From positions 34,775 to 98,774 of the forward strand of contig DATJGD010000012.1 of the NCBI GenBank assembly GCA_035495255.1: 64,000 bases of DNA, written 5' to 3'. A program made the position numbers and the translations under genes. Within the stretch, counting starts at the first letter, position 1. Each line of letters starts with the position of its first letter. Positions 3,447 through 64,000 of the stretch are shown here, in pieces. This DNA is from Bacteroidota bacterium. Lineage in GTDB: Bacteria; Bacteroidota; Ignavibacteria; UBA10030; SZUA-254. The notes under the pieces were generated by a model. The model was not told where the DNA came from, did not search any database, and saw nothing but the letters and a program-made list of their open reading frames with translations.

Positions 3447-5894
3447 TTGAGGCAATTTATTTCTATGGGAAAATTAAAATCAAACCATGAAGTCCCGGCA
3501 GACCAGCTGCGCTGGCACTGCAACCCGAAGTACATCCCGGTAAAAACCACGAATGAAGTAAAACCGTCGAAGGAAATTATCGGCCAGGAGCGTGCGCTTC
3601 GGGCGCTTCGGCTCGGGCTCGAGATGAAGCATCCGGGGTACAACGTGTTCGTCACGGGTTTTTCCGGAACGGGGCGCATGACGACGATCAAACGGCTTCT
3701 CACTGAACTCGAGAACCGCGGGTCGAATCTGAACGACCTCTGCTACGTTCATAATTTCCGGAACACCGATCAGCCGACGCTTCTCGCGTTGCCCGTCGGC
3801 GAAGGATGCAAATTCTCCGACGATATGGAGATGCTCGTTCAGGATCTTATGAAAGATATTCCGGCGTCGTTTGAGACGAAACGGTTTAAGGATGAGCGCA
3901 AACGCCTCATGGAGCATTTTCAGGAACGCCAGCAGAGCGTCCTCAAGGAATTCGAGAAGCGGGTGAAGGAAAAGGGCTTTGAAGTCGTCCAGGTGCAGGT
4001 CGGTTCCGGCATGCGGCCTGACATCACTCCCGTGGTCAATAACAACCCGGTAAGTTTCGATCAGCTCGACAATTTGCTGAAAGAAGGCCAAGTCACGAAA
4101 GAGCAGATCGAGCAATTGTCAAAGGACCGTCTCGTCCTCGAAGGACAGATGGAAATCGTTCTCCGTGAGCTGCGGAACATCGAACGCAAGGCCAGGGAAT
4201 CGATGGATGAGCTTGCCGAGCGATTCATCCTTCCCATCGTACGGGACGAAATCGATCACATCCGGAAATCGTACAACAACGAAAAGCTCCACCGCTACCT
4301 CGACGACGTTCAGGAAAACATTATGGATGATCTGAACCGCTTTCGTCCCGCGGAAGAGCAGCAATCGCAGATCATGGGCATGCCGATGCCATCCCCGGAA
4401 GAAGACCGTTTTACCGAGTACCGCGTGAATGTCGTGGCCGACAATTCCGAGACAAAGGGCGTCCCGATTGTTATCGAAACAAATCCGAAATTCAAAAACA
4501 TCTTCGGAACGATCGACCGCGAGGTAGACCGGAATGGTGTTTGGCGGACCGATTTCACGCTCATCAAGGCGGGCTCCCTCCTCCACGCGAACGGCGGTTA
4601 TCTCGTCATCAACGCGCTCGACGCCCTTATCGAGCAGGGAGTCTGGCAGAATCTCAAACGAACCCTGCGCAACAACCTCCTCGAGATCCAGCCGATTGAA
4701 ACCGGCTTGTTCGGCGCATCCTCCGCGCTGAAGCCGGAACCCATCGACATCGACGTAAAAGTCGTCATGCTCGGCGACGCCTCGATTTACTTTATCCTCT
4801 ACGACCAGGACGACGATTTCAAAAAGATTTTCAAGGTTCGGGCGGATTTCGACACGGAGATGGCGAAGAAGCCGCAGACGATCAGGCACTATATTTCGTT
4901 CATCAAAATGATCTGCGACGACGAAAAACTGAAAGCGTTCAACAAGGCCGGAATCGCCGCCGTGATCGAATACGGGACGCGCCTCGCTGAGCGGCAGGAA
5001 AAGCTTTCGACGCGGTTTAATATAATCGCCGACATCCTTCGTGAATCAAACTACTGGGCGACGAAGGACGACGCCCTGCTTGTCAACGACCAGCACGTGC
5101 TGAAAGCCATCGACGAGCGGGTGGAGCGGGTAAAATTGATGGAGGAAAAGATTGAAGAGATGATTCTCAACGGCGAGATGATGATCGATACGGAGGGATC
5201 TGTCGTGGGACAGGTCAACGGCCTGACGATCTACGACGTGCGGGAGTACTCGTTCGGAAAACCTTCGCGTATCACGGCGAAGACCTCCATCGGCAACGCG
5301 GGTATCATCAATATCGAACGGGAATCCGAACTGAGCGGCCCGACCCACAACAAGGGAGTACTCATCCTCAGCGGTTATCTCCATGGAATGTACGCTCAGA
5401 AGAAGCCGCTCGCAATGACGGCAAGCCTGACATTCGAGCAGTCGTACGGGGGCGTCGACGGAGACAGCGCCTCATCGACTGAGATCTACGCTCTCCTGTC
5501 GAGCCTCTCAAAGCTTCCTCTCCGGCAGGACATTGCCGTTACAGGTTCGGTGAATCAAAATGGAGAGATTCAGCCGATTGGCGGCGTCAACCAGAAAGTC
5601 GAGGGGTTCTTCAGCGTGTGTAAAGCCCGGGGCCTTACCGGGAAACAGGGAGTCATCATTCCTCATCAGAACAAGAAAGACCTCATGCTGCGGCACGAAG
5701 TCGTGCACGCCGTCCGCCAGGGCAAGTTCCATGTCTACGCCATCGCGTCGATCGACGAAGGGATTGAGATTCTCACGGGGAAAAAAGCCGGAAAAAAATT
5801 ACGCAGCGGCGCGTTCGAGAAGGACTCCGTGCACCATCTCGTCGATCATACGCTCACCGAATACGCGAAGCACTGGAAGGAACTGAACCAGTAA
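3447..5894 (+). CDS. Lon-related ATP-dependent protease (AAA+ domain plus S16 Lon proteolytic domain; COG1067/LonB-like)
   Basis: 815 aa. N-terminal Walker A GFSGTGRMT, then a long helical insertion. C-terminal Lon-type protease core (GQVNGLTIY...GPSAG-like SYGGVDGDSASS...IAVTGSVNQNGEIQPIGGV) with the Ser-Lys dyad context. Confidence 0.75.
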   Translation: MRQFISMGKLKSNHEVPADQLRWHCNPKYIPVKTTNEVKPSKEIIGQERALRALRLGLEMKHPGYNVFVTGFSGTGRMTTIKRLLTELENRGSNLNDLCYVHNFRNTDQPTLLALPVGEGCKFSDDMEMLVQDLMKDIPASFETKRFKDERKRLMEHFQERQQSVLKEFEKRVKEKGFEVVQVQVGSGMRPDITPVVNNNPVSFDQLDNLLKEGQVTKEQIEQLSKDRLVLEGQMEIVLRELRNIERKARESMDELAERFILPIVRDEIDHIRKSYNNEKLHRYLDDVQENIMDDLNRFRPAEEQQSQIMGMPMPSPEEDRFTEYRVNVVADNSETKGVPIVIETNPKFKNIFGTIDREVDRNGVWRTDFTLIKAGSLLHANGGYLVINALDALIEQGVWQNLKRTLRNNLLEIQPIETGLFGASSALKPEPIDIDVKVVMLGDASIYFILYDQDDDFKKIFKVRADFDTEMAKKPQTIRHYISFIKMICDDEKLKAFNKAGIAAVIEYGTRLAERQEKLSTRFNIIADILRESNYWATKDDALLVNDQHVLKAIDERVERVKLMEEKIEEMILNGEMMIDTEGSVVGQVNGLTIYDVREYSFGKPSRITAKTSIGNAGIINIERESELSGPTHNKGVLILSGYLHGMYAQKKPLAMTASLTFEQSYGGVDGDSASSTEIYALLSSLSKLPLRQDIAVTGSVNQNGEIQPIGGVNQKVEGFFSVCKARGLTGKQGVIIPHQNKKDLMLRHEVVHAVRQGKFHVYAIASIDEGIEILTGKKAGKKLRSGAFEKDSVHHLVDHTLTEYAKHWKELNQ

Positions 5895-5985
5895 CTGCGG
5901 TCCCCCGCGTGGAATTGCTTCTCTAGCGGAATTTGCTAAATTAGGGAGGCGGCACGCGGCAATTCATCCCAATTCTTTCACATTC

Positions 5986-6522
5986 ATGATTCTCACGGAC
6001 GCGCAGATCCTCGAAGAAATGAGGAAGAAGACGATTGTCATCTCCCCCTTCAATCGAAAGTGTCTCGGCTCCAACAGCTACGATGTCCACCTCGGCAATT
6101 GGCTTGCGATGTACCGGGAAGAAATTCTCGACGCGCGCCGGCATAACCGTGTTCACTATTTCCGCATCCCAAGAGAAGGTCTCATCCTCGTTCCGAGCAA
6201 ATTGTATCTCGGAGTCACGGAGGAATACACCGAGACGCACCACCATGTTCCCTTCCTTGAGGGAAAGAGCAGCATCGGGCGGCTGGGAATCGACATACAC
6301 GCGACTGCAGGCAAAGGGGACATCGGATTCTGCAATACCTGGACCCTGGAAATTTCGGTGCGGCAGCCCGTGCGCATCTACGCCGGCATGCCGATCGGGC
6401 AATTGATCTATTTCGAAATTAATGGTGAAGTGGAAGTGCCGTACAACAGGAAAAAAAGCGCGAAATACAACAGGCGCACAGTGAAGCCGGTCGAATCTAT
6501 GATGTGGAAAAACTTTAAATGA
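5986..6522 (+). CDS. dcd: dCTP deaminase
   Basis: 178 aa. MILTD..IVISPF...GSNSYDVHLG...LEGKSSIGRLGI, the typical Dcd/dUTPase-fold signature. Confidence 0.9.
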   Translation: MILTDAQILEEMRKKTIVISPFNRKCLGSNSYDVHLGNWLAMYREEILDARRHNRVHYFRIPREGLILVPSKLYLGVTEEYTETHHHVPFLEGKSSIGRLGIDIHATAGKGDIGFCNTWTLEISVRQPVRIYAGMPIGQLIYFEINGEVEVPYNRKKSAKYNRRTVKPVESMMWKNFK

Positions 6523-6551
6523 TTACACAGAACCTGATGAAAGGACCTACC

Positions 6552-8630
6552 ATGAAATCAAGAAACTTGGCTGCAATTCTCTTTTGTTTGCTGCTTGTCG
6601 CTCCGTGTTCCTCCCTCCTCGCGCAAACGAAGCGCCCCATCGAGCTGGAAGACATGTTCCATATTAAGCGCGTCACCGATCCGCAGCTTTCTCCTGACGG
6701 AAAATGGGTCGCGTATGTCGTTACCGTCGTCGATAAGGCGGCAAACCGGACAAACAGCGATATCTGGATCGTGTCATCAAACGGCGGAGCCCCGCGTCAG
6801 CTTACAAATTCTCCCCGCCACGACCGGCATCCGCGCTGGTCACCCGACGGCAAGTCGATTCTCTTTGAATCGAACCGTAACGGCGCGTTTCAGTTGTATG
6901 TCGCACCCAGCGAAGGGGGCGATCCGCGGCAGCTGACGACGATTTCTACCGAAGCGAACTCGGGCGTCTGGTCACCCGACGGCAAATCGGTCGCGTTTGT
7001 CTCAGGCGTGTTTGCTGAATTCTCCGATAAGCCGTTTCAGGAAAGCGACGCATTAAATAAGAAAAAACAGGATGACCGCGACAACAGCAAAGTAAAGGCG
7101 CGTGTATTTACACAATTGCTGTATCGACACTGGGACAGCTGGGTAGACGACAAACGACAACACATCTTCGTTGTCCCGTCTGCGGGCGGTGAGCCGAAAG
7201 ATGTAACGCCCGGAGAGAATGACGCGCAGCCGACCTCTTCGACGTTTTCCGCCGGCGATGAATTCGACTTCTCACCCGACAGCAGGGAGATCGCATTTAC
7301 ATGCCCTCCCACCCCCACGCGCGAACAGGCATGGAGCACCAACCACGATATTTTCACCGTGAATCTTTCAACCGGAGAGCGAAAACAGCTTACCACTAAT
7401 CCGGCGGCCGACGGATTTCCCCGATACTCTCCGAACGGCAAGTACGTTGCATACCGCGCGCAATCGAAGCCAGGCTTCGAGGCAGACCGATGGCAGTTGA
7501 TGCTGTACGATCGCGAAACGGGGACAACGAGAAGTTTGTCGGAAGATTTTGATTCTAATGTGGAGGCCGTGGCCTGGAGCAATGACAGCAAGAAACTGTA
7601 CTTCGACGCGGAAGAGAAAGGGAATAAACCCCTGTGGTCCACTTCCTTAAGAAATAATGAAATGAACAAGCTTGTCGAGGCGGGCGTCAATGGCGACATT
7701 AGCTGTTCCCCCGGGGGGAAATTACTGGTGTATTCTCACCAATCGTTCACCCATCCGGTTGAGATCTATACCGCGGCCCTCGATGGAAAGAGCCAGAAGC
7801 AGTTAACACATGTCAATGATGAATTATTTTCCCAGCTTATGTTCACTGAGCCCGAATATGCTTGGTTCGACGGCGCGAATAAGACAAAGGTACAAATGTG
7901 GATCGCAAAACCGCCGACATTTACGGCTGGAAAAAAATATCCGCTCGTATTCTGGGTGCACGGCGGGCCGCAGACAGCGTTTCTTAACTCGTGGTCGTAC
8001 CGCTGGAACTCACAATTGTGGGCCGCACAGGGCTACGTCGTAACCCTCGCGAATCCCCGCGGCAGCACAGGCTTCGGACAGCAGTTCACCGATGAGATCA
8101 GCCACGATTGGGCCGGTAAAGTGTATGAGGATCTCATGAACGGCCTCAGTTATCTTGAATCGCAGCCGTACATCGATACAAGCAGAATGGCGGCGGCGGG
8201 CGCGTCGTTCGGCGGATATATGATGAACTGGTTCGAAGGACACACGGATAAGTTCAAGACAATCGTTTGCCATGACGGCGTATTCAATTTCTCGAGCATG
8301 TACGGCACCACCGAAGAAGTTTGGTTCGACGAATGGGAACACGGGAAGCCGTGGGAAAACCCGGGCGGGGATAAAGATTCTCCGAACCTGTATGCAAAGA
8401 ATTTCAAGACACCGATGCTGATCATCCACAGCGAGCTCGATTACCGCGTCCCGCTGAACGAAGGACAGCAGCTCTTCACGACTCTGCAGCGGCAGGGGGT
8501 TCCCTCGAAGTTCCTGTATTTCCCGGACGAGGGACACTGGGTGCTGAAGCCCGGAAACAGCGAGCTGTGGCATAAGACGATTTTTGAATGGCTCGCCGGT
8601 TATTTGAAGCCGGAAGTGGCAGTGAAGTAA
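6552..8630 (+). CDS. secreted S9-family serine peptidase (TolB-like beta-propeller plus prolyl-oligopeptidase alpha/beta-hydrolase domain)
   Basis: Signal peptide MKSRNLAAILFCLLLVAPCSSLLAQ. Repeated SPDGK propeller blades. C-terminal GASFGGYM (GxSxGG nucleophile elbow) with D and H downstream. Start moved from 6519 to the Met that begins the signal peptide. Confidence 0.8.
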   Translation: MKSRNLAAILFCLLLVAPCSSLLAQTKRPIELEDMFHIKRVTDPQLSPDGKWVAYVVTVVDKAANRTNSDIWIVSSNGGAPRQLTNSPRHDRHPRWSPDGKSILFESNRNGAFQLYVAPSEGGDPRQLTTISTEANSGVWSPDGKSVAFVSGVFAEFSDKPFQESDALNKKKQDDRDNSKVKARVFTQLLYRHWDSWVDDKRQHIFVVPSAGGEPKDVTPGENDAQPTSSTFSAGDEFDFSPDSREIAFTCPPTPTREQAWSTNHDIFTVNLSTGERKQLTTNPAADGFPRYSPNGKYVAYRAQSKPGFEADRWQLMLYDRETGTTRSLSEDFDSNVEAVAWSNDSKKLYFDAEEKGNKPLWSTSLRNNEMNKLVEAGVNGDISCSPGGKLLVYSHQSFTHPVEIYTAALDGKSQKQLTHVNDELFSQLMFTEPEYAWFDGANKTKVQMWIAKPPTFTAGKKYPLVFWVHGGPQTAFLNSWSYRWNSQLWAAQGYVVTLANPRGSTGFGQQFTDEISHDWAGKVYEDLMNGLSYLESQPYIDTSRMAAAGASFGGYMMNWFEGHTDKFKTIVCHDGVFNFSSMYGTTEEVWFDEWEHGKPWENPGGDKDSPNLYAKNFKTPMLIIHSELDYRVPLNEGQQLFTTLQRQGVPSKFLYFPDEGHWVLKPGNSELWHKTIFEWLAGYLKPEVAVK

Positions 8631-8665
8631 GAAGTACCGTGAGCCACAGGCCGCTTACGTTTCTC

Positions 8666-9022
8666 ATGGCAGCGTTGTTGGTTGGTTGCACTTCCACGAA
8701 TACATTTACCCGTGAAGAGCTTATCGCCGACCAAAGCCATAGCATCGTCGTTCACACGTATGACGGCAGAGTCATCCGGTTTTCTAAAGGCGACTACAGG
8801 ATCAGCCGTGTCGATCCCGGAAAGCTCGCGGGGAATGGAAAGCTGGTAGTAAATGAGACCTCCGGATCCGCCAGAGATTGGGAGGGAGATCTCACGTTCG
8901 ATGAAATTAAATCAATTTCGTACTCCGAACCGACGATCTTCGGAGCTGCTTCGGCTGTGTTCTTTATCGGTCTCGGCGCGCTGATCATATTGCTGGTTGC
9001 GTATCCGCCAAAAATGCATTGA
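8666..9022 (+). CDS. hypothetical lipoprotein with a C-terminal TM helix
   Basis: MAALLVGC lipobox, a soluble ~90-aa domain and a C-terminal hydrophobic helix. Start placed after the stop of the upstream S9 gene (the ORF track starts at 8588, inside that gene). Confidence 0.5.
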   Translation: MAALLVGCTSTNTFTREELIADQSHSIVVHTYDGRVIRFSKGDYRISRVDPGKLAGNGKLVVNETSGSARDWEGDLTFDEIKSISYSEPTIFGAASAVFFIGLGALIILLVAYPPKMH

Positions 9023-9034
9023 TGGAACAGGAAA

Positions 9035-9856
9035 ATGACCTTCATCCAAAAACTTCGTAACATCCAGCGCAAAAATAATTCATTGGTCTGCATCGGCCTC
9101 GACACCGATGTGACAAAGGTCCCCGAGTCGTTGTACCGTTGGGGTGATCCGCAATTTGAGTTCAACCGCCGGATCATCGACGCCACCAAAGATCTGGTTT
9201 GCGCCTACAAGCTGAATATTTCATTCTACGAGTCGGTCGGCGAGCACGGATGGTACACGGTGCACCAGACGCTTGCGCGCATTCCCGAAGAAATCGTGAC
9301 CATCGGGGACGGCAAGCGCGGCGACATCCCGAGCTCGGCCGAACGCCAGGCCCATCTCCTCTGCAACGATTGGGAATTTTCCGGAACGACGGTAAACCCC
9401 TACATGGGAGGCGATTCCGTCGAACCGTTTACCAGGAGACCCGAACAGTGCGCGTTCGTTCTTGCTGTCACGTCGAACAAGGGATCGAAGGATTTTCAAC
9501 ACCTCAAGGTCAACGGCAAGCCATTGTACGAGCACGTAGTCCGTACCGCGAAGAAGTGGAACAAGAAAAAGAATATCGGTCTCGTGGTCGGAGCGACACG
9601 CCCGGCGGAGCTGAAGCGCGTGAGATCGCTTGCGCCGGAGATGCCTATTCTCATCCCGGGCATCGGCGCACAAAAAGGAGATCTGGCCTCGACGGTTCGC
9701 TACGGCTGCGACAAGAACGGAGAGCTCGCGATCATCAACATCGGGCGCGCAATTATCAACGCCTCGACCGGCGACGATTTTGCGGAGAGGGCACGGGAAG
9801 CTACGATCCGGTACCGAAATCAGATCAACGAAATCCGCGAGAAATACTTCCGCTAG
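9035..9856 (+). CDS. pyrF: orotidine-5'-phosphate decarboxylase (long type-2 form)
   Basis: 273 aa. VCIGLDTD..., DGKRGDI, and a C-terminal IINIGRAI motif typical of OMP decarboxylase. Confidence 0.85.
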   Translation: MTFIQKLRNIQRKNNSLVCIGLDTDVTKVPESLYRWGDPQFEFNRRIIDATKDLVCAYKLNISFYESVGEHGWYTVHQTLARIPEEIVTIGDGKRGDIPSSAERQAHLLCNDWEFSGTTVNPYMGGDSVEPFTRRPEQCAFVLAVTSNKGSKDFQHLKVNGKPLYEHVVRTAKKWNKKKNIGLVVGATRPAELKRVRSLAPEMPILIPGIGAQKGDLASTVRYGCDKNGELAIINIGRAIINASTGDDFAERAREATIRYRNQINEIREKYFR

Positions 9857-9938
9857 TCGAAACTTTCCGTCGCGGATTCTTGCCGCGGCAGCCACCTCTC
9901 TTTATTCAAACTAATTTTTTCCCTATATTCAGTATCTA

Positions 9939-11096
9939 ATGAATTTAGGAACGTCTGTGTCACGCTCTCAACGCTGCATCGGAATCCTCGGGGGAGGCCA
10001 GCTCGCGCGCATGTCCGCGCTCGCCGCTTACGAACTTGGATTCACGGTGGCGATCGTCGACAGGGATTACGGTTCTCCCGCAGGCAAATTGACTCACCAC
10101 GAGTTCGTCGGTTCGTTTGACGACGACGAACTTCTGCAGCGATTCTGCCAGGTGTCGGACGTTGTCACGCTCGAGAACGAGTTTGTCGATTACCACCGTC
10201 TCGAACTGATCGAGAAAATGAAGAAGACGGTCTTCCCCTCGCCGAAAACCATTTCGCTGATCCAGGATAAGCTCCAGCAGAAAACCATACTGAGGAAAAA
10301 GGGAATACCGGTCGCCGACTTTCTTGAAGTCGGCAGCGCCAGCAATCTTCTTCCCATTATCCGCAAGCTGTCCATTCCGTTTGTCCTGAAATCGCGAAAG
10401 ATGGGATATGACGGGTATGGGAATGCCCTGGTTTCAAATAAAGTCGAGTTTGACGAAGCATACGGGACCCTCACCTCGAGGCATGCGAACCTTCTCGCAG
10501 AGAAGTTCATCGATTTTCAGATGGAGCTCGCGGTGATGGTCGCGCGCACTGCCAAGGAGATCCGCGTCTACCCGCTCGTCCAGACCATTCAGCGCAATCA
10601 TATCTGCCATACAGTCATCGCTCCCGCCCAGGTTGAGCCGCGTGTCCTCGCCGACGCGCAGGAAATCGCCGTCGAGGCGGTCAAAGCCGTCCAGGGATTC
10701 GGGCTGTTCGGTGTCGAATTCTTTCTCGTGAAAAACAACAAACTCCTTGTCAATGAAATGGCGCCGCGGCCGCACAATTCGGGCCATTACACGATCGAGA
10801 CATGCGTGACGTCGCAGTTCGAAAACCACGTTCGCGCAGTCCTGGGATTACCGCTCGGCTCGACCGAAATGGTTTGCCGGCATGCCGTGATGGTGAACTT
10901 ACTCGGTTCGAGAAAGCCCTCTTCAGGAATGAAAAACTACAACACCGCGCTCCGGCATCCGAACGCGCACCTTCACATCTACGGCAAGAACGAGTCCAGG
11001 GCCGGAAGAAAGATGGGACACATTACCCTCACGGGCGACTCGCTTCCGCCGCTCATACAACAGTCCAAAAAGCTCGAATCAAAAATTCTCATATGA
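9939..11096 (+). CDS. purK: N5-carboxyaminoimidazole ribonucleotide synthase
   Basis: 385 aa ATP-grasp. [13 protein letters not shown]-terminus and ...[13 protein letters not shown]. Overlaps purE by ATGA. Confidence 0.9.
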
Positions 11097-43756: not shown

Positions 43757-44197
43757 TTACCGCATGACTTTCGCGGCGATATTCTCGTACGGCTCCTGCT
43801 GGTTCTTCTTGTAGTCCTCGTAGCTTCCGGGATCCCACAACTCAATTTTGTCCAGCGTTCCGATGATCCGGACCTCGTCGCCGATGTTTGCAAACTCGCG
43901 CAGCTCCTGGGGAATGGAAAGGCGCGCCTGGCCGTCGAGCTGGCTTTCCGACGCGAGCTCGAGCAATGCTCTGATAAGGCTTCGATGCTCCGGATTGTAG
44001 GAGGAGAGGTTGCGCAGGGTTTGTTCGAGCTTGTTCCATTCGTCGATTGGATAGACGAACAGGCACTTCTCAAATCCGCGCGTGATGACGAAGGTGTCGC
44101 TGCATTCCGGATTGACGTACTTCCGCAGCTTGGCAGGAAGATTTACTCTTCCTTTCTCATCGACGGCATACATATATGAGCCCTTAAATGACGACAT
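43757..44197 (-). CDS. mraZ: transcriptional regulator MraZ
   Basis: 146 aa, two-fold-repeat MraZ. First gene of the dcw cluster. Confidence 0.9.
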   Translation of the reverse strand: MSSFKGSYMYAVDEKGRVNLPAKLRKYVNPECSDTFVITRGFEKCLFVYPIDEWNKLEQTLRNLSSYNPEHRSLIRALLELASESQLDGQARLSIPQELREFANIGDEVRIIGTLDKIELWDPGSYEDYKKNQQEPYENIAAKVMR

Positions 44198-44237
44198 TAT
44201 TTTTTCATTTCCTGATCTTCGACAAAATCCTTTAAAT

Positions 44238-44270
44238 CAAAAAAAATTCCACACCATTATTCCCCACTTT
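44238..44270 (-). promoter_or_regulatory. candidate MraZ operator: direct repeats GTGGGGA-N3-GTGGGGA (10-bp period) plus a degenerate third repeat, 40-75 bp upstream of mraZ
   Basis: The plus strand reads ttCCACACcattatTCCCCACtttTCCCCACcgg. On the mraZ strand this is GTGGGGaaaaGTGGGGaataatGGTGTGG. MraZ proteins are known to bind 10-bp-spaced GTGG[GT] direct repeats in their own promoter region. Confidence 0.5.
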
Positions 44271-44431
44271 TCCCCACCGGTGAAACTCCAATTTAGGGTT
44301 TTTTGCTTAAAAGTCAAGTGTTTTTTGCGTTTTGGAGGGAATTACTGGGCTTTTGTGAAGCCGAACAACAACTCTGAAGAAAAACGGCTAAAACGGGCTA
44401 TTTTCGAGGGTGCCTAAGGGCTCAAAATGGA

Positions 44432-44558
44432 CCCAAAGTGGGTAAGAAGGGGACAAAAATTCTGACCGTTATGAGGGCCTGACATCGGGTCTCCTTCAGC
44501 CCGCCCGGAACCTCATGTCGCGCCGGTTGCCGTCGGCCCGAAGTGAGTAAGAACGGCG
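44432..44558. repeat. two imperfect 22-nt direct repeats (cccaAAGTGgGTAAGAAgGGg / cccgAAGTGaGTAAGAAcGGc) ~105 bp apart in the long mraZ/DUF1059 intergenic region
   Basis: Seen directly in the sequence. Both copies again contain a GTG(G/A)G core. Function unknown. Confidence 0.4.
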
Positions 44559-44742
44559 CAACGTTTTCAGAAATTCGTCCGGAAAAATGCTCTGCCTGTT
44601 ACGACAAATTTCTAAAAGTATTTTAGACGGCAAAAGGCATTGTATATTTTTTTTAATTGCCAACCTGAATCATTGGGGAGCACACAACGTTTTTATTAAT
44701 GTCATCGTCGAAAGATCATTCAACATTCATAAGGAGTCAGTC

Positions 44743-44883
44743 ATGGTACAACGAATTTTTCTTGCGGGCTTTGTTCTTGTCTTCGCGTTCTCATTTGTGA
44801 CACTGGCGATCGCCCAGGACACAATGAGGCGTGACACAACGGGGCATAATTATATGAAGCAGGACACAGCAGATGCGCCATGA
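44743..44883 (+). CDS. signal peptide plus Met/Asp-repeat N-terminal fragment of a DUF1059-like secreted protein (frame-disrupted relative to the downstream ORF)
   Basis: RBS AAGGAG 7 nt upstream. MVQRIFLAGFVLVFAFSFVTLAIAQ signal peptide. Ends at TGA 44881-44883, which overlaps the ATG of the next ORF. The paralogue at 61844-62182 carries the same signal peptide, repeat and domain in one frame. Confidence 0.5.
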   Translation: MVQRIFLAGFVLVFAFSFVTLAIAQDTMRRDTTGHNYMKQDTADAP

Positions 44884-45167
44884 ACCGGGACATGAAGAAC
44901 GGGGAAATGAATGACCGGGACACGTTCAATCGCGGCATGAAGGGGCAACGGGGAATGAACAACAACCAGGAAATGTCGGGCTCTCTCCAATCGGCCACAT
45001 GCGACATCTGCGGATTCATGGTCCGAAGCCACAACGAGAAAGAGATCGCTTCGATCATGAAAACACATCAAAAGAAATATCATCACAAGACCGTCTCCGA
45101 CAAGGACGTCAAGGACATGATTCGAAACGATCAGAGTCATTCGGAAAATGATATCAAGCAGCAATGA
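44880..45167 (+). CDS. DUF1059-like small metal-binding-type domain protein (C-terminal part; probably the frameshifted continuation of 44743-44883)
   Basis: Met-rich repeats (MNRDMKNGEMNDRD...GMKGQRGM), then CDICGFMVRSHNEKEIASIMKTHQKKYHHK, matching the CxxCGF....E.E......H....H pattern recalled for DUF1059 and the paralogue at 61844-62182. Confidence 0.6.
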   Translation: MNRDMKNGEMNDRDTFNRGMKGQRGMNNNQEMSGSLQSATCDICGFMVRSHNEKEIASIMKTHQKKYHHKTVSDKDVKDMIRNDQSHSENDIKQQ

Positions 45168-45194
45168 TGAATCTGACGTATCGCCAATAAAGAA

Positions 45195-45220
45195 CCCCGT
45201 CATCGACGGGGTTTTTTCTT
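45195..45220 (+). terminator. rho-independent terminator after the DUF1059-like gene
   Basis: CCCCGTC-atc-GACGGGG hairpin followed by TTTTTTCTT. Confidence 0.6.
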
Positions 45221-45283
45221 GGCGTACTGCAATCGTAAGCCATTGCCGCACAAGTACTTATATGATATTACAAATCGCACTCA

Positions 45284-48200
45284 TTATTGAGACACTCGCC
45301 GCGAAGCGTCTGCCATCTCGCCGATGACCTTTGCAGCTGCTGCCAATCGCAGTTGGGGATCCGCCGTCGCCGGCAGTGCGGTCTGCAGAGTGAGATCCTT
45401 TCCTTGCTGGCGGAGTTGAATGTTTTTCAGACTCTTGTCCGCTAACTTTCGCATGATCAATTGAAACGGAGACTCCGCGTCACTCTGTGTCCCGTAGAAT
45501 TTGTCATCGGAGGAATCCGGCAGGGTCACGACGAGGGTCTGACCTTTCAGGGAAACTTTTATGAAATTGCCGCCGGCCGCGATCAGCCGCAGCGTCATGA
45601 GCCCTGTGAGGTGTTCCACTTCTTCCGGGTACTGGCCAAACCGGTCGACAAGCTCTTCCCTGATATTTTTCAGCTCCGCTTCCGAGCGCACCTTGTAGAG
45701 GCGGCGATAAAGATCCAACCGTTCAGTATCTGATTCAACGTAAAAGTCCGGGATAAGTGCTTCAATGTCCGATTCTATGATTGTTTCCGGAAGATGCGGT
45801 TCTGCGCCGGACACCTGCGCGGTGAAGAGTTCTTTGAACTCTTCTTCCTTGAGCTCTTCGACCGCCTCTCTCACGATCCGCTCATACATTTCAAATCCCA
45901 TTTCCATGATGAATCCGGATTGCTCCGCGCCGAAGACATTTCCGGCGCCGCGAATTTCCAGGTCGCGCATCGCGAGATTGAAGCCGGAGCCGAGTTCCGA
46001 AAACTCTTCGATCGCCTGCAGGCGGCGGAGCGTCTGTTTCGGCAGAATGCCGAGCGGCGGGACGAGAAGATACGCGTAGGCCTGGATATTCGAACGCCCT
46101 ACCCTCCCACGGAGCTGGTAGAGCTCCGCGAGCCCAAACCGGTCAGCCCGGTTGATAATGATCGAATTCACGCTCGGAATATCGAGCCCGGATTCGATAA
46201 TCTTCGTGGCAACCAGCACGTCGAACTTTTTCTCCAGAAAGTCCATCATGGTCTGCTCGAGTTCGTGCCCTTTCATCTGGCCGTGCGCGGCGTGAACCCG
46301 GGCATGCGGTACATGCGTTTTGATCTGGCTTGTGATCGTGTCGATATTCTGCACCCGGTCGTGGACCACGTAGACCTGTCCTCCCCGGTGAAGCTCTTTC
46401 ATGATCGCTTCCCGGAATATATTCCAGTGCGCCTGGCGCCCTTCGGAGGCAGGAATAATTTCGGTGATGATGGGGAGTCTGTTTCTCGGCGGCGTGGAAA
46501 TAAGCGAGAGATCCCGCGCACCCATAAGAGAAAAATGGAGCGTTCTCGGAATCGGCGTGGCGGTAAGCGACAGCGTATCAACGGTCGCTTTCAGCTGGCG
46601 AAGTTTTTCTTTCGCGGCAACTCCGAACCTGTGCTCTTCGTCGATGATGAGAAGACCCAGGTCTTTGAACGCGATGTCTTTTGAAAGCAGCCTGTGCGTA
46701 CCGATGACAATGTCGACCGATCCGCCGCGCAGCGCCTCCACGACATTCTTCTGCTCCTTCTTCGACTTGAACCGTGTAAGGTGCTCTATGCGCGTAGCAT
46801 AGCGCGAGAGCCGGTCATGAAACGTATTGTAATGCTGGAGCGCGAGGATCGTCGTCGGCACGAGCAGTCCCACCTGCTTCCCATCCATGACGGCTTTGAA
46901 TGCCGCACGGACCGCGACCTCCGTCTTGCCAAAGCCGACGTCGCCGCAGATCAGCCGGTCCATCGGCGACGAGCTTTCCATATCCTGCTTAACTGCAAGC
47001 GTCGCGCTTGCCTGATCGGGAGTGTCTTCGTACATAAAGGACGCCTCAAGTTCCTTCTGCCAGTGGGAATCCGGGCTGAAGGCGGTGCCGTGTTCGTGCT
47101 TGCGGCGGGCATAGAGCTTCATGAGATCGCGCGCGATATCTTTGACCCGTTTTTTCGCGCGTGCTTTTGCTTTTTCCCACTCCGGCGTTCCGAGCTTGTT
47201 AAGAACCGGAGCATGTCCTTCCGCCGAAGAATATTTCTGAACGCGGTTGATGAAGTTCAGGTTCACGTAGAGGACGTCATCCTCCAGAAAATGCATTTTC
47301 ATGACTTCCTGTTCGATGCCGCCGACCGTCAGCTTCTTGAGGCCGTCGAACACGCCGATCCCGTGGTCCACGTGGACGACAAAGTCTCCGCGCCGAAGCT
47401 GCTGAACCTCTTTCTGAGAAAATCCTTTGAACCGCTTCCGCTTCGCAAGGCCTCTTCGCCTCAGCCGTCCGAAAATCTCATGCTCGGTAAATACGACGAG
47501 ACGTTCAGGATGGTAAATGAAACCGGAATGGATGGTTTCGGAAAGAAATTTCGGAGCAATCTTCTGCAACCGTGCTTCGTCAACCTCCTCCGGCTCGTTA
47601 TGTTCTTCTACCGAACCGTCACCGCCGGCGTGAAATCGGCCGCCCGGTTCAACTTCGGGGTTTCCGGACGGGGTTTCTTCAATGAGCTCTTTCAGCCGGT
47701 CAGATTCGGCTTTCATATCGCTCGTCAGCAGGACAGAATATCCTTCGGCCGTGAATTTCCTGAGTGCTTCTACTAATCTGCCGATGCTTCCGTTGAACGC
47801 GGGCTGGGGCGCCGCGGAGAACGTAAGATCCGAAGATTGATTACGGATCGGAGAGCTTTCAATGACCCGGAAGCGAGCGAGCTGGACGTTTATTTCCTCC
47901 GCTGAGAATAATCCGGCGGCTTCTTCCGCCAGCCGTTCAGTGATTTCCCGATCAATGCTTGCAGGATCATCCAGCACCACGAGGCTATTTTCCCCGATAT
48001 AATCGAGAAGCGAAGAGGTGCGCGCGGATGTGTCCGTGGCTTCCTTCTCTCCGGGAGCCGCCTGCCCTGTGCCCTCTTCCCCGGGCGCGCTTGATTGGAG
48101 AGCGGGGACAATGCTCGCAGATTTCATTTGGCGGATCGATCGCTGAGAGAGCGCGTCGAATTCCCGGATGGATTCGACAGTGTCGCCCCAGAATTCCAGC

Positions 48201-48796
48201 CGGAGAGGATTGTCTCCCGCATACGAGAACACATCGATAATGCCGCCGCGGACCGCAATGTCGCCGTAGCTTTCGACAAACTGTTTTCGTTCGAATCCCA
48301 GCGATTCAAGATTTTCGATGAGCTCCCGGAACTTGTACTGCTTGCCTGAATCAACTTCCACGATTCTTTTAGTGAAGGCGCGCGGCGGCGGCAGTTTTTC
48401 TGCGATCGATTGCGCCGACGCAACGACGATCAAACGTAGATCAGACGAAATCGATTTCAGCGTTTCTATTTGCGAAATCGAAGAGGTCATATCGAGCGTC
48501 TGCGCCGAGTGCGCCGGGCTGGATCCGAAGAACCGGACACGATCTTCTCCTGCGAGAATCGCACAATCGTCTCGAAGTTTTTCCGCGCGCTCCTGATCCG
48601 AACCGATGAGCAAAACATTTTTGACGCCCGGAGAAGTATCTCCTCCCTCTTCGAAGAGGTTGACCGCAACGAACGCGAGAAGAGATCCGGCGGCGCCGTC
48701 AACGACGAGCGGCTTCCCCGGGTGGAGTGATCCAGCCTTCTTCGCAAGGGCTTTGAACTCGGCCGAACGGTATATTTTTTCCTTGATTTCCTTCAA
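45284..48796 (-). CDS. mfd: transcription-repair coupling factor Mfd
   Basis: 1170 aa. UvrB-homology N-terminus, RNAP-interaction domain, superfamily-2 helicase motifs (GDVGFGKTEVA, DEEHRFG), TRG motif. Confidence 0.95.
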   Translation of the reverse strand: MKEIKEKIYRSAEFKALAKKAGSLHPGKPLVVDGAAGSLLAFVAVNLFEEGGDTSPGVKNVLLIGSDQERAEKLRDDCAILAGEDRVRFFGSSPAHSAQTLDMTSSISQIETLKSISSDLRLIVVASAQSIAEKLPPPRAFTKRIVEVDSGKQYKFRELIENLESLGFERKQFVESYGDIAVRGGIIDVFSYAGDNPLRLEFWGDTVESIREFDALSQRSIRQMKSASIVPALQSSAPGEEGTGQAAPGEKEATDTSARTSSLLDYIGENSLVVLDDPASIDREITERLAEEAAGLFSAEEINVQLARFRVIESSPIRNQSSDLTFSAAPQPAFNGSIGRLVEALRKFTAEGYSVLLTSDMKAESDRLKELIEETPSGNPEVEPGGRFHAGGDGSVEEHNEPEEVDEARLQKIAPKFLSETIHSGFIYHPERLVVFTEHEIFGRLRRRGLAKRKRFKGFSQKEVQQLRRGDFVVHVDHGIGVFDGLKKLTVGGIEQEVMKMHFLEDDVLYVNLNFINRVQKYSSAEGHAPVLNKLGTPEWEKAKARAKKRVKDIARDLMKLYARRKHEHGTAFSPDSHWQKELEASFMYEDTPDQASATLAVKQDMESSSPMDRLICGDVGFGKTEVAVRAAFKAVMDGKQVGLLVPTTILALQHYNTFHDRLSRYATRIEHLTRFKSKKEQKNVVEALRGGSVDIVIGTHRLLSKDIAFKDLGLLIIDEEHRFGVAAKEKLRQLKATVDTLSLTATPIPRTLHFSLMGARDLSLISTPPRNRLPIITEIIPASEGRQAHWNIFREAIMKELHRGGQVYVVHDRVQNIDTITSQIKTHVPHARVHAAHGQMKGHELEQTMMDFLEKKFDVLVATKIIESGLDIPSVNSIIINRADRFGLAELYQLRGRVGRSNIQAYAYLLVPPLGILPKQTLRRLQAIEEFSELGSGFNLAMRDLEIRGAGNVFGAEQSGFIMEMGFEMYERIVREAVEELKEEEFKELFTAQVSGAEPHLPETIIESDIEALIPDFYVESDTERLDLYRRLYKVRSEAELKNIREELVDRFGQYPEEVEHLTGLMTLRLIAAGGNFIKVSLKGQTLVVTLPDSSDDKFYGTQSDAESPFQLIMRKLADKSLKNIQLRQQGKDLTLQTALPATADPQLRLAAAAKVIGEMADASRRVSQ

Positions 48797-61778: not shown

Positions 61779-61812
61779 AAAAAGAAAAGCCCCGTCCTTC
61801 AGGGGACGGGGC
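61779..61812 (-). terminator. rho-independent terminator after the DUF1059-like gene (minus strand)
   Basis: GCCCCGTCC-ttcagg-GGACGGGGC 9-bp stem followed on the minus strand by CTTTTCTTTT. Confidence 0.55.
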
Positions 61813-61843
61813 CGGTGCAACGGAACGATGAGAAAGCTTCGAA

Positions 61844-62182
61844 TTACTTGGTGGCTTCCTCGGTCTTCATCATTTCTTTGATCTTCGCGTCGGTCATGGT
61901 CATTTTGTGGACCATCTTCGCGTGCGTTTTGACCATCGAAATGATTTCTTTTTCGCTATGGCTTCGAACCATGAAGCCGCAGGTCGCGTCGCAGTTTACC
62001 GACTTCAACGGACCGGACATGCTCTCATCTTTTTTCATTTCCCCTTTGGCATCGTCCTTCTTCATCTCCATTTTCTTATCGTCCTTCTTCATCTCTTGTT
62101 TTGCGGCATCCTGGGCGAACGTGGCAAGGGAGAAGGAGAGTGTGAGCGCGAACAAGAACAATGCGGCAAAAATTCGTTTCAT
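61844..62182 (-). CDS. secreted DUF1059-like protein with a Met/Lys/Asp repeat linker (paralogue of 44743-45167)
   Basis: Start at MKRIFAALFLFALTLSFSLATFAQ with an RBS GGAG upstream. Repeat EMKKDDKKMEMKKDDAKGEMKKDESM. Then CDATCGFMVRSHSEKEIISMVKTHAKMVHKM. The ORF-track start at 62260 is rejected. Confidence 0.65.
   Translation of the reverse strand: MKRIFAALFLFALTLSFSLATFAQDAAKQEMKKDDKKMEMKKDDAKGEMKKDESMSGPLKSVNCDATCGFMVRSHSEKEIISMVKTHAKMVHKMTMTDAKIKEMMKTEEATK
62051..62095. repeat. intragenic tandem repeat (18-nt unit atcgtccttcttcatctc, 27-nt period) encoding the KKDD..MEM repeats
   Basis: Two identical copies at 62051-62068 and 62078-62095. Confidence 0.5.
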
Positions 62183-62349
62183 ATGAACTCCTTTCAGATG
62201 ATGTGAGTTGTGATTTGCTGCCCCCGGTTTGGCAATAGAAGGTACCCCTTTCAACGGCAAAAATCAATTCGGGAATCCGGCTTTTGTACCTCTCCCCATT
62301 TTTCCGTATCTTGAGTCCACTTTTCAAGGAAAAACGTCAAATTATCATT

Positions 62350-64000
62350 ATGTCTTCAGTTTCTACAATTCCGACGAACAATCAAAGGCTTATCACGTGG
62401 GTCGAGGAGATGAAATCCCTCTGCAAGCCCGACGCGGTCCATTGGTGCGACGGTTCGGAGGCGGAATACCAGAGGCTCTGCGATCAACTCGTCGCTTCCG
62501 GGACATTTATCAAGCTCAACGAGCAAAAGCGGCCGAACAGTTTTCTCTCGCGGTCAGATCCCGGAGACGTCGCCCGCGTCGAAGACCGGACGTTCATCTG
62601 CAGCGTTCGGAAAGACGACGCCGGGCCGATGAACAACTGGATCGCCCCGAAAGAAATGAAAGAAAACCTTACCAAACTGTTCAACGGCTGCATGCGAGGA
62701 AGGACGATGTACGTCATTCCCTTCAGCATGGGGCCGCTCGGTTCTCCCATTTCCCACATCGGCGTCCAGGTCACCGACTCGCCGTATGTCGTCGTGAGCA
62801 TGAAGATTATGACGCGCATGGGAAAGAAGGTGTTGGATGTTCTTGGCGCGGATGATTTCGTTCATTGCTTGCATTCGGTGGGAATGCCCCTCGCACAAGG
62901 CCAAAAGGATGTACCGTGGCCGTGCAATAAGGATCAAAAGTATATCGTCCACTTTCCGGAAGATCGAACCATCTGGTCGTTCGGAAGCGGATACGGCGGA
63001 AACGCGCTGCTGGGAAAAAAATGTTTCGCGCTTCGCATCGCGTCGACGATGGCGCGCGACGAGGGCTGGCTCGCCGAACACATGCTCATCCTCGGCGTGG
63101 AATCTCCCGACAAGGAAAAATCCTACATCGCCGCGGCGTTTCCCAGCGCCTGCGGAAAAACAAATTTTGCGATGCTCATCCCTCCGGCGGCGTTTAAAGG
63201 GTGGAAGGTGACGACAGTCGGCGATGACATTGCCTGGATCAAACAGGGAAGCGACGGGAAACTCTACGCGATCAACCCCGAAGCGGGCTATTTCGGAGTG
63301 GCACCGGGGACTTCGTACAAGACAAATCCGAACGCGATGGAGTGCATTAAGGCGAATACGATCTTTACGAACGTCGCGCTGACCCCCGACGGCGACGTTT
63401 GGTGGGAAGGAATGTCGAATCCTCCCGAGAAGCTTACCGACTGGCGGGGAAAAGAGTGGACTCCGAATTCTCCCGGGCCGGCGGCTCACCCGAACGCACG
63501 CTTCACCGCGCCGGCGCACCAGAACCCGATCATCGACCCTTCGTGGGAAGATCCTAGCGGCGTTCCGATCAGCGCGTTGATTTTCGGGGGAAGAAGAAGC
63601 ACAGTCGTCCCGCTGGTCCATCAGTCCGCGAACTGGAACTTCGGCGTCTACATGGCGGCGACGATGGGCTCCGAAACGACGGCTGCTGCGGCCGGCGAAG
63701 TCGGAAAAGTGCGCCGCGACCCGTTCGCGATGCTTCCGTTCTGCGGCTATCATATGGCCGATTATTTTAACCACTGGCTGCAGTTTGGCCGGAATCTTCC
63801 AAACCCGCCGAGAATCTTTGCCGTAAACTGGTTCCGGAAAGACGAGAACGGAAGATTCATTTGGCCGGGATACAGCGAGAACATGCGCGTCCTGAAATGG
63901 ATCGTCGACCGCGCGCGGGGCCGCGGGCACGCCATTGAAAGCCCGCTCGGCTGGATGCCGCTCTACGAGGATTTTATGTGGGAGGGTCTGGAGAGCTTCA
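62350..64000 (+). CDS. pckG: phosphoenolpyruvate carboxykinase (GTP), 3' end beyond the window
   Basis: Manual translation from ATG 62350: [36 protein letters not shown]... with [24 protein letters not shown] and [18 protein letters not shown] (GTP-PEPCK P-loop/kinase-1a). Absent from the ORF track because no stop occurs before the window end. The antisense ORF 62554-63930 is rejected. Confidence 0.9.

Follow-up and report, generated by a model that had tools for sequence, protein, structure and literature searches.

The window (the whole stretch of DNA analysed here, 64,000 nt) carries at 44743-45167 two short open reading frames, ORF1 and ORF2, whose joint product has the architecture of a 112-aa paralogue encoded elsewhere in the window and of about 24 homologue clusters (Table 1). 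In ORF1 the boundary between signal peptide and mature part lies between MVQRIFLAGFVLVFAFSFVTLAIA and QD, the whole product being MVQRIFLAGFVLVFAFSFVTLAIA followed by QDTMRRDTTGHNYMKQDTADAP, and its N-terminus aligns with the N-termini of 24 family members and of an orthologue on another contig, L062. The product of ORF2 (MNRDMKNGEM...CDICGFMVRSH...KKYHHK...IKQQ, then a stop) starts with a Met/Asn/Arg/Asp-rich stretch, continues with SGSLQSATCDICGFMVRSHNEKEIASIMKTHQKKYHHK... and has a domain with the motif pieces CDICGFMVRSH...THQKKYHHK. ORF2 is read in the -1 frame relative to ORF1, and the stop of the one and the ATG of the other overlap as ATGA. An earlier note on this DNA had described two such frames reproducing the layout of the paralogue and jointly open only over 44850-44883; its coordinates and translations proved correct, a TAA at 44847-44849 closing the ORF2 frame and leaving an overlap window of 34 nt. 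ORF1 has a Shine-Dalgarno sequence, and ORF2 has none of its own.

Table 1. Coordinates of the split gene, its neighbours and the intact paralogue in the window
Feature	Position	Strand	Description
mraZ	43757-44197	-	146-aa ORF; opens the dcw cluster; transcribed away from the split gene
Shine-Dalgarno AAGGAG	44731-44736	+	6 nt upstream of the ORF1 ATG
ORF1	44743-44883	+	46 codons; signal peptide and first Met/Asp repeat units; MVQRIFLAGFVLVFAFSFVTLAIAQDTMRRDTTGHNYMKQDTADAP, then stop
Degenerate 15-nt (5-codon) coding repeats	44818-44975	+	ATG-AAG/AGG-nnn-GAC-ACA and variants; encode the Met-rich linker
Lesion	between 44878 and 44879	+	one base missing; window GCGC^CATG, L062 ACGCACATG (DNA alignment)
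ORF2	44880-45167	+	95 codons; rest of the Met-rich linker and DUF1059-like domain
Intrinsic terminator of the split gene	45193-45219	+	hairpin AACCCCGTCATCGACGGGGTT at 45193-45213, then T-run; between the convergent split gene and mfd
mfd (presumed)	45284-48796	-	1170-aa ORF; convergent, downstream of the split gene
Intrinsic terminator of the paralogue	61788-61813	-	10-bp stem with 8 GC pairs, then TTTCTTTTTC (T-run)
Intact paralogue	61844-62182	-	112 aa; signal peptide, MKKD/E repeats, DUF1059 domain with C64, C68, H87, H92

The other elements named in the earlier note, strong terminators on both genes and an upstream region shared with mraZ, are also present. The MraZ protein is 92% identical in amino acids to that of L010, a related genome, and 91% identical to that of L062, and on the contig SRR9009773 a 146-aa gene at the matching position relative to the 95-aa ORF is annotated as PF02381 MraZ. 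On the other side lies a gene that we take, from what is known of the family's length and sequence motifs, to be mfd (transcription-repair coupling factor); its product shows 78% amino acid identity to that of the corresponding L010 gene. In the window the interval between mraZ and mfd (44198-45283) is 1.1 kb long and contains the split gene alone. The L010 interval (4340-10634) is 6.3 kb long and holds a TauE gene, a DUF1059 gene (P0013), a 178-aa gene and LMF1/DCC1-like, HTH and TMEM164-like genes, from which we conclude that the gene content between mraZ and mfd turns over rapidly among close relatives; P0013 belongs to the subclade of the paralogue. In L062 (404-1454) it is an LMF1-like gene, not mfd, that comes after the DUF1059 gene. 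About 270 nt upstream of mraZ (44198-44467) are part of a stretch about 88.6% identical to L062, and 44468-44640 is not alignable; a promoter or leader of mraZ may account for the conserved part. This conserved DNA matches no Rfam family, and in a scan of 44100-45300 nothing came near any Rfam gathering score.

A secreted, Met-rich branch of the DUF1059 family

The resemblance to DUF1059 that the earlier note had seen was checked against the Pfam model PF06348, which has a curated gathering cut-off of 21.1 bits. It is clear for the paralogue (31.3 bits), already named 'DUF1059 domain-containing protein' at NCBI, and for the L062 orthologue (25.3 bits); P0013, P0020 and P0022 also pass, and a C...CGF...H...H core is common to all five. 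The split copy, in contrast, stays just below the cut-off, both as ORF2 (19.9 bits) and as the restored 141-aa protein (18.9 bits), and its assignment to the family rests on its evident homology to proteins above the cut-off. In a word-seeded search the paralogue, whose translation is a single frame (MKRIF...MKKDD repeats...CDATCGFMVRSH...HAKMVHKM), retrieved 24 homologue clusters, which originate from metagenomes of soil and groundwater and from MAGs labelled 'Bacteroidota/Ignavibacteria'. All of them are single-frame and follow one plan, in which the signal peptide (…SFS..TFAQD) comes first, MKKD/E-type repeats form the linker, and the domain reads GPLKSVxCDxxCGFMVRSHxEKE…H.KK.H. These three parts share one frame in the paralogue, in the 24 clusters and in L062, but not in the mraZ-adjacent copy of the window. 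Scanning the GTDB representative genomes placed the full architecture in Ignavibacteria/Bacteroidota-type MAGs and a bare, signal-less domain of 55-65 aa in Nitrospirota, Deltaproteobacteria, Aminicenantes, CPR bacteria and several archaea. Compared with most PF06348 proteins, which are of this short, signal-less kind, those of the Ignavibacteria/Bacteroidota clade are extended by a signal peptide and a Met/Lys/Glu-rich linker of 20-55 aa.

Across 67 domain sequences, ORF2 included, seven positions are invariant (C64, C68, G69, F70, S74, H87 and H92 in the numbering of the paralogue). The CxxC...H...H pattern of the earlier note is therefore right as to the two Cys and two His, but its C-x2-C is atypical for a family that has C-x3-C in all but three of the 67 sequences. 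The three exceptions are C-x2-C in the split gene (CDIC, 45005-45016) and C-x4-C in L062 (CDVNGC, 1181-1198) and in a Nanoarchaeia sequence (L055). The loop between the invariant Cys appears to be unusually unstable in the sub-lineage of the split gene. Family-wide, the linker contains 15% Met and 0.6% His, and Met is kept even where K/D/E have given way to N/R/G in the clade of the split gene. AlphaFold2 predicts with confidence a beta-beta-alpha-alpha-beta domain of about 55 aa (pLDDT 84 for the paralogue domain alone) and a disordered linker. Foldseek comparison of both models with the PDB gave no neighbour with E < 1, and for the DUF1059 proteins studied there was no match in the PDB by sequence and no family match in NCBIfam. 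The literature on DUF1059 contains two passing mentions only, one of them within a [NiFe]-hydrogenase gene cluster, with the function given as unknown, and no mention of PF06348 was found in the literature. The neighbours of the family's genes are heterogeneous (PEPCK/PTR2, TetR-MFP-MFS-OEP, cytochrome c, TauE, amylase, GH47, AcrB, TPR, FliW), and gene context points to no function; the DUF1059 gene behaves as a stand-alone unit. Some distant relatives (P0028, P0031, P0048 and P0057) contain two or three tandem, related Cys...H...H modules (CPDPCSF... or CPICNNE...). In P0031 a hydrophobic, signal-like segment is clearly seen at the N-terminus, and P0057, with 456 aa, combines three CxxCGF/Y modules with an unrelated N-terminal region.

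One missing base in the linker-coding repeats

An exhaustive HMMER search identified one close relative of ORF2, the 123-aa P0027 (68% identity by phmmer). The related metagenome contig that bears it, L062, carries the positional orthologue (66% identical to ORF2 by tblastn), with mraZ divergently upstream as the anchor of this positional match and with the Shine-Dalgarno context 'cataaggag' and the terminator hairpin in common; the DNA upstream of the gene is 88.6% identical over 674 nt, and the hairpin downstream of it, AACCCCGTCATCGACGGGGTTTTTT, is identical to that of the window. In L062 the gene (959-1351) is one uninterrupted ORF of 130 codons, MLKRNFIMGFILVLAFSFLTIAIAQDTTRQNYMKQDTDKTHMGGGMNNREM…CDVNGCGFMIRSHNEKE…SENDIKQ, comprising signal peptide, linker and domain, and thus a single gene and not a pair. 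Aligning the two DNAs shows that the window lacks one base between 44878 and 44879, inside the very stretch where the earlier note had supposed one gene to be split by a frameshift. Within the gene the window differs from L062 by four indels: a gain of 15 nt that corresponds to one 5-codon repeat unit, a gain of 21 nt in the linker, a loss of 6 nt between the two Cys, all three in frame, and this loss of 1 nt, the only one of the four that breaks the frame. Adding one base at the lesion yields a single frame of 141 aa (…NYMKQDTADAHMNRDMKNGEM…), 67% identical to the L062 orthologue. Independently of L062, the shift is confined to 44866-44889, because ORF1 and ORF2 both read the GGACA motif that recurs in them with GAC (Asp) as a codon. 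Since the combined product aligns end to end with the 24 single-frame homologues and with the single-frame positional orthologue, the match of both ORFs to one protein is not a matter of chance. ORF1 and ORF2 are evidently the two halves of what was once a single gene, which a frameshift has interrupted, and this frameshift created the TGA that ends ORF1.

Further orthologues were sought by several routes. When the fused protein and the L062 protein were used in word-seeded searches, each matched only itself. Two scans of metagenome contigs gave distant, domain-only relatives, and the best match in a scan of genome contigs had 53% identity, the species of the window not being among the matches. 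One protein-pattern scan of metagenome contigs matched 522 stretches, of which 0 were confirmed; it carries little weight, as sample 3300031716 (source of L001, see below) was apparently absent from the scanned set. Synonymous divergence between window and L062 is much higher in the DUF1059 gene (pS 0.64, dS about 1.4) than in the adjacent mraZ (pS 0.35, dS 0.48), a gap for which codon-usage constraint on mraZ, recombination and small-sample noise are possible causes.

Fate of the split gene

Three explanations for the split had been offered in the earlier note, a sequencing indel, a genuine pseudogene and slippage-prone phase variation. A sequencing or assembly indel, with the genome truly carrying an intact gene, comes to mind for a single-base difference in a metagenome-assembled genome that is known from assembled sequence alone. 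However, three further contigs, from JGI 3300031716, Logan SRR8549365 and Logan SRR9009773, encode an identical 95-aa ORF2. The first two (L001 and L002) align gap-free to the window at 99.5-99.6% identity and carry 8-12 SNPs relative to it, none of them within the split gene, and so represent a second haplotype, with the reservation that L001 and L002 do not differ in their overlap and could stem from a single sample, so that the assemblies are perhaps not all independent. The SRR9009773 contig has a mraZ-ORF2 spacing of 683 nt, equal to that of the window. The split form is the only allele in the window and in these three contigs, a small sample of assembled sequences, and no intact allele turned up among 5.8 billion protein clusters queried with the fused protein. 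Because the gap-free split recurs in assemblies with a second haplotype and the site, GCGCCATG in its assembled form, is not a homopolymer, an assembly error is very unlikely, and we conclude that the deletion is real and common to the sampled population. The form GCGCNCATG at this site would indicate phase variation or an assembly error. Phase variation, in which reversible slipped-strand mispairing in the repeats would switch the secreted protein ON and OFF, is suggested by the position of the lesion within degenerate 15-nt repeats and by the length changes of 15 and 21 nt there between lineages. The 'ggacaca/gggaca-rich' repetitiveness that had raised this idea is real, but it is that of a degenerate 15-nt coding repeat, the only kind of repeat near the lesion, and not of a simple sequence repeat. 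Slippage between the 5-codon units, which share 74-85% identity, adds or removes multiples of 3 nt and is unable to bring the two ORFs back into one frame. Between 44840 and 44900 there is no homopolymer of at least 5 nt, no 2-6-nt unit repeated at least 3 times and no repeat of 1, 2, 4 or 5 nt. A tract whose unit is not a multiple of 3 is thus lacking, as is an in-frame allele beside the out-of-frame one, every assembly and database searched holding the OFF allele only. We consider phase variation as highly improbable. Still more remote is programmed -1 ribosomal frameshifting or transcriptional slippage that would fuse ORF1 and ORF2 into the full-length protein. The -1 frame of ORF2 and the 34-nt overlap are in line with such recoding, but the ORF1 frame contains no X_XXY_YYZ slippery heptamer, the overlap contains neither a heptamer nor an A/T run, a tRNA-Pro on CCA would, from the sequence, be unable to re-pair on GCC, and the two-frame layout is conserved neither in the orthologue nor in any relative, all of which are single-frame. 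Both phase variation and programmed frameshifting therefore find no support in the sequence.

The explanation we favour, with a probability of about 0.65, is that the split gene is an ordinary young pseudogene, or a truncated remnant. The mraZ-adjacent gene is a copy of a gene for a small secreted protein in which a Sec-type signal peptide is followed by a Met-rich linker, predicted to be disordered, and by a DUF1059 domain of about 55 aa. One base was deleted inside the linker-coding repeats in the lineage of the window. Translation from the intact Shine-Dalgarno sequence and ATG of ORF1 now stops at the next ATGA after 46 codons, so that the domain is cut off from the export signal and no full-length secreted protein can arise. 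The lost function would be covered, if at all, by the intact paralogue. Loss of function is favoured because export is the rule in the clade, L062 carries an intact orthologue, ORF2 has no ribosome-binding site of its own and an intact paralogue is present in the genome. Like ordinary frameshift pseudogenes, the split gene has a single-base deletion, a premature stop and no secondary lesions, the promoter region, Shine-Dalgarno sequence, signal peptide, invariant Cys/His and terminator all being intact, and as with them a relative carries an intact orthologue and the genome itself an intact paralogue. Its only peculiarity lies in the Met-Lys/Asn repeats. In the ORF1 frame each ATGAA of the ORF2 repeats supplies a TGA. 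A shift of the same phase thus always terminates at a codon that is Met in the true frame, with a nearby TGA and an overlapping in-frame ATG guaranteed. The ATGA overlap is therefore automatic and is not evidence of selected coupling, although it can give the false appearance of two translationally coupled genes.

How old the deletion may be was approached through substitution rates (Nei-Gojobori, base-restored window gene against L062). For the whole gene the dN/dS ratio is 0.13; the ORF1 part has 0.24, the ORF2 part 0.085 and the domain 0.083, against 0.082 in the neighbouring mraZ. A relative-rate test against the family consensus counted 10 amino acid changes unique to the window and 7 unique to L062 (p = 0.63). 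Decay after the frameshift is thereby ruled out as the origin of the long branch of the split gene, since L062 has the same long branch and the relative rates are flat, which means that this branch predates the lesion. Either the deletion is recent relative to the split of the two lineages or ORF2 is still under selection; the data fit both equally, and, with one close orthologue to date it by, the event is poorly dated. Selection on ORF2 would be expected if the split were tolerated or even useful, that is, if ORF2 were translated by termination-reinitiation at the ATGA to give a signal-less cytoplasmic protein of 95 aa, with ORF1 yielding a short exported peptide and the domain being relocalised. 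Consistent with this are the ATGA overlap, the retention in ORF2 of the family-invariant C, C, G, F, S, H and H with a dN/dS of 0.08, the absence of any rate acceleration in the window copy and the occurrence of the split allele in two haplotypes; moreover, in Nitrospirota, Deltaproteobacteria, archaea and CPR a DUF1059 protein normally has 55-65 aa and no signal peptide, so a cytoplasmic ORF2 could function. However, a very recent lesion predicts a low dN/dS equally well, the overlap is a by-product of the ATGAA repeats, ORF2 has no Shine-Dalgarno sequence, the arrangement is not conserved in the sole close orthologue, the Pfam score is under the cut-off, and the C-x2-C spacing occurs in none of the other domain sequences compared (n=67). 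We regard such a relocalisation as unlikely. The pseudogene proposed in the earlier note is thus the one of its three explanations that gains support, from the intact single-frame orthologue and the single missing base; its recency, like the loss of function, is probable rather than observed. For annotation this would mean that the public 95-aa 'hypothetical protein' and the 98-aa ORF upstream of it are halves of one frameshifted DUF1059 gene, for which pseudogene or frameshifted CDS is the proper annotation. A cluster of three SNPs (44609, 44611 and 44619) distinguishes the two haplotypes.

The intact paralogue and metal binding

The paralogue is of the same family as the split gene, as the earlier note had recognised, but the two are not recent duplicates. 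Such a recent duplication is ruled out by their identity of about 43% and by their different subclades in a neighbour-joining tree of the 54-residue domain, which is built on few positions and only indicative: the split gene falls in an 'HHK/HNK' subclade (P0018-P0023, L013) and the paralogue with P0004/P0006/P0016. The earlier note had further likened the Met-rich repeats to Cu(I)-binding motifs. Met-rich periplasmic segments that bind copper or silver are known as the Mets motifs of CopA/PcoA, CopB, PcoE/SilE and CusF. Like these, the linker of the family is exported, predicted to be disordered and has periodic Met, and its 15% Met family-wide upholds this part of the comparison. In contrast to Mets-motif proteins, however, it has no sequence or profile similarity to any copper-protein family, and His is almost absent. 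Neither Pfam, NCBIfam and the PDB, beyond DUF1059 itself, nor the gene neighbours gave any sign of copper-family homology or of a copper-resistance or other metal-related neighbourhood. From the four invariant residues and the composition of the linker, a CCHH metal site and a metal-scavenging Met-rich linker can reasonably be inferred. A broader combination, in which ORF2 is re-initiated at the ATGA and kept in the cytoplasm, the paralogue supplies the exported form and the clade constitutes an undescribed class of small periplasmic metal-binding or metal-buffering proteins, seems to us doubtful.

The family is already catalogued as DUF1059, though uncharacterised, and its intact, secreted Met-rich clade is of more interest than the split copy. 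With its invariant C, C, H and H, a confidently predicted fold and no structural neighbour in the PDB, this clade is a modest but concrete target for metal-binding work, for which the intact paralogue is a better object than the split copy. Five other contigs carry exact copies of the paralogue, with PEPCK and a PTR2/MFS transporter as its neighbours on either side. In the alignment of one contig, L005 (JGI Ga0310812_10039672), with 61846-63618 of the window there is one gap, which lies inside the PEPCK gene, and by tblastn the PEPCK of L005 is recovered as two overlapping segments (residues 1-191 and 176-439), suggesting a frameshift or an assembly error there.
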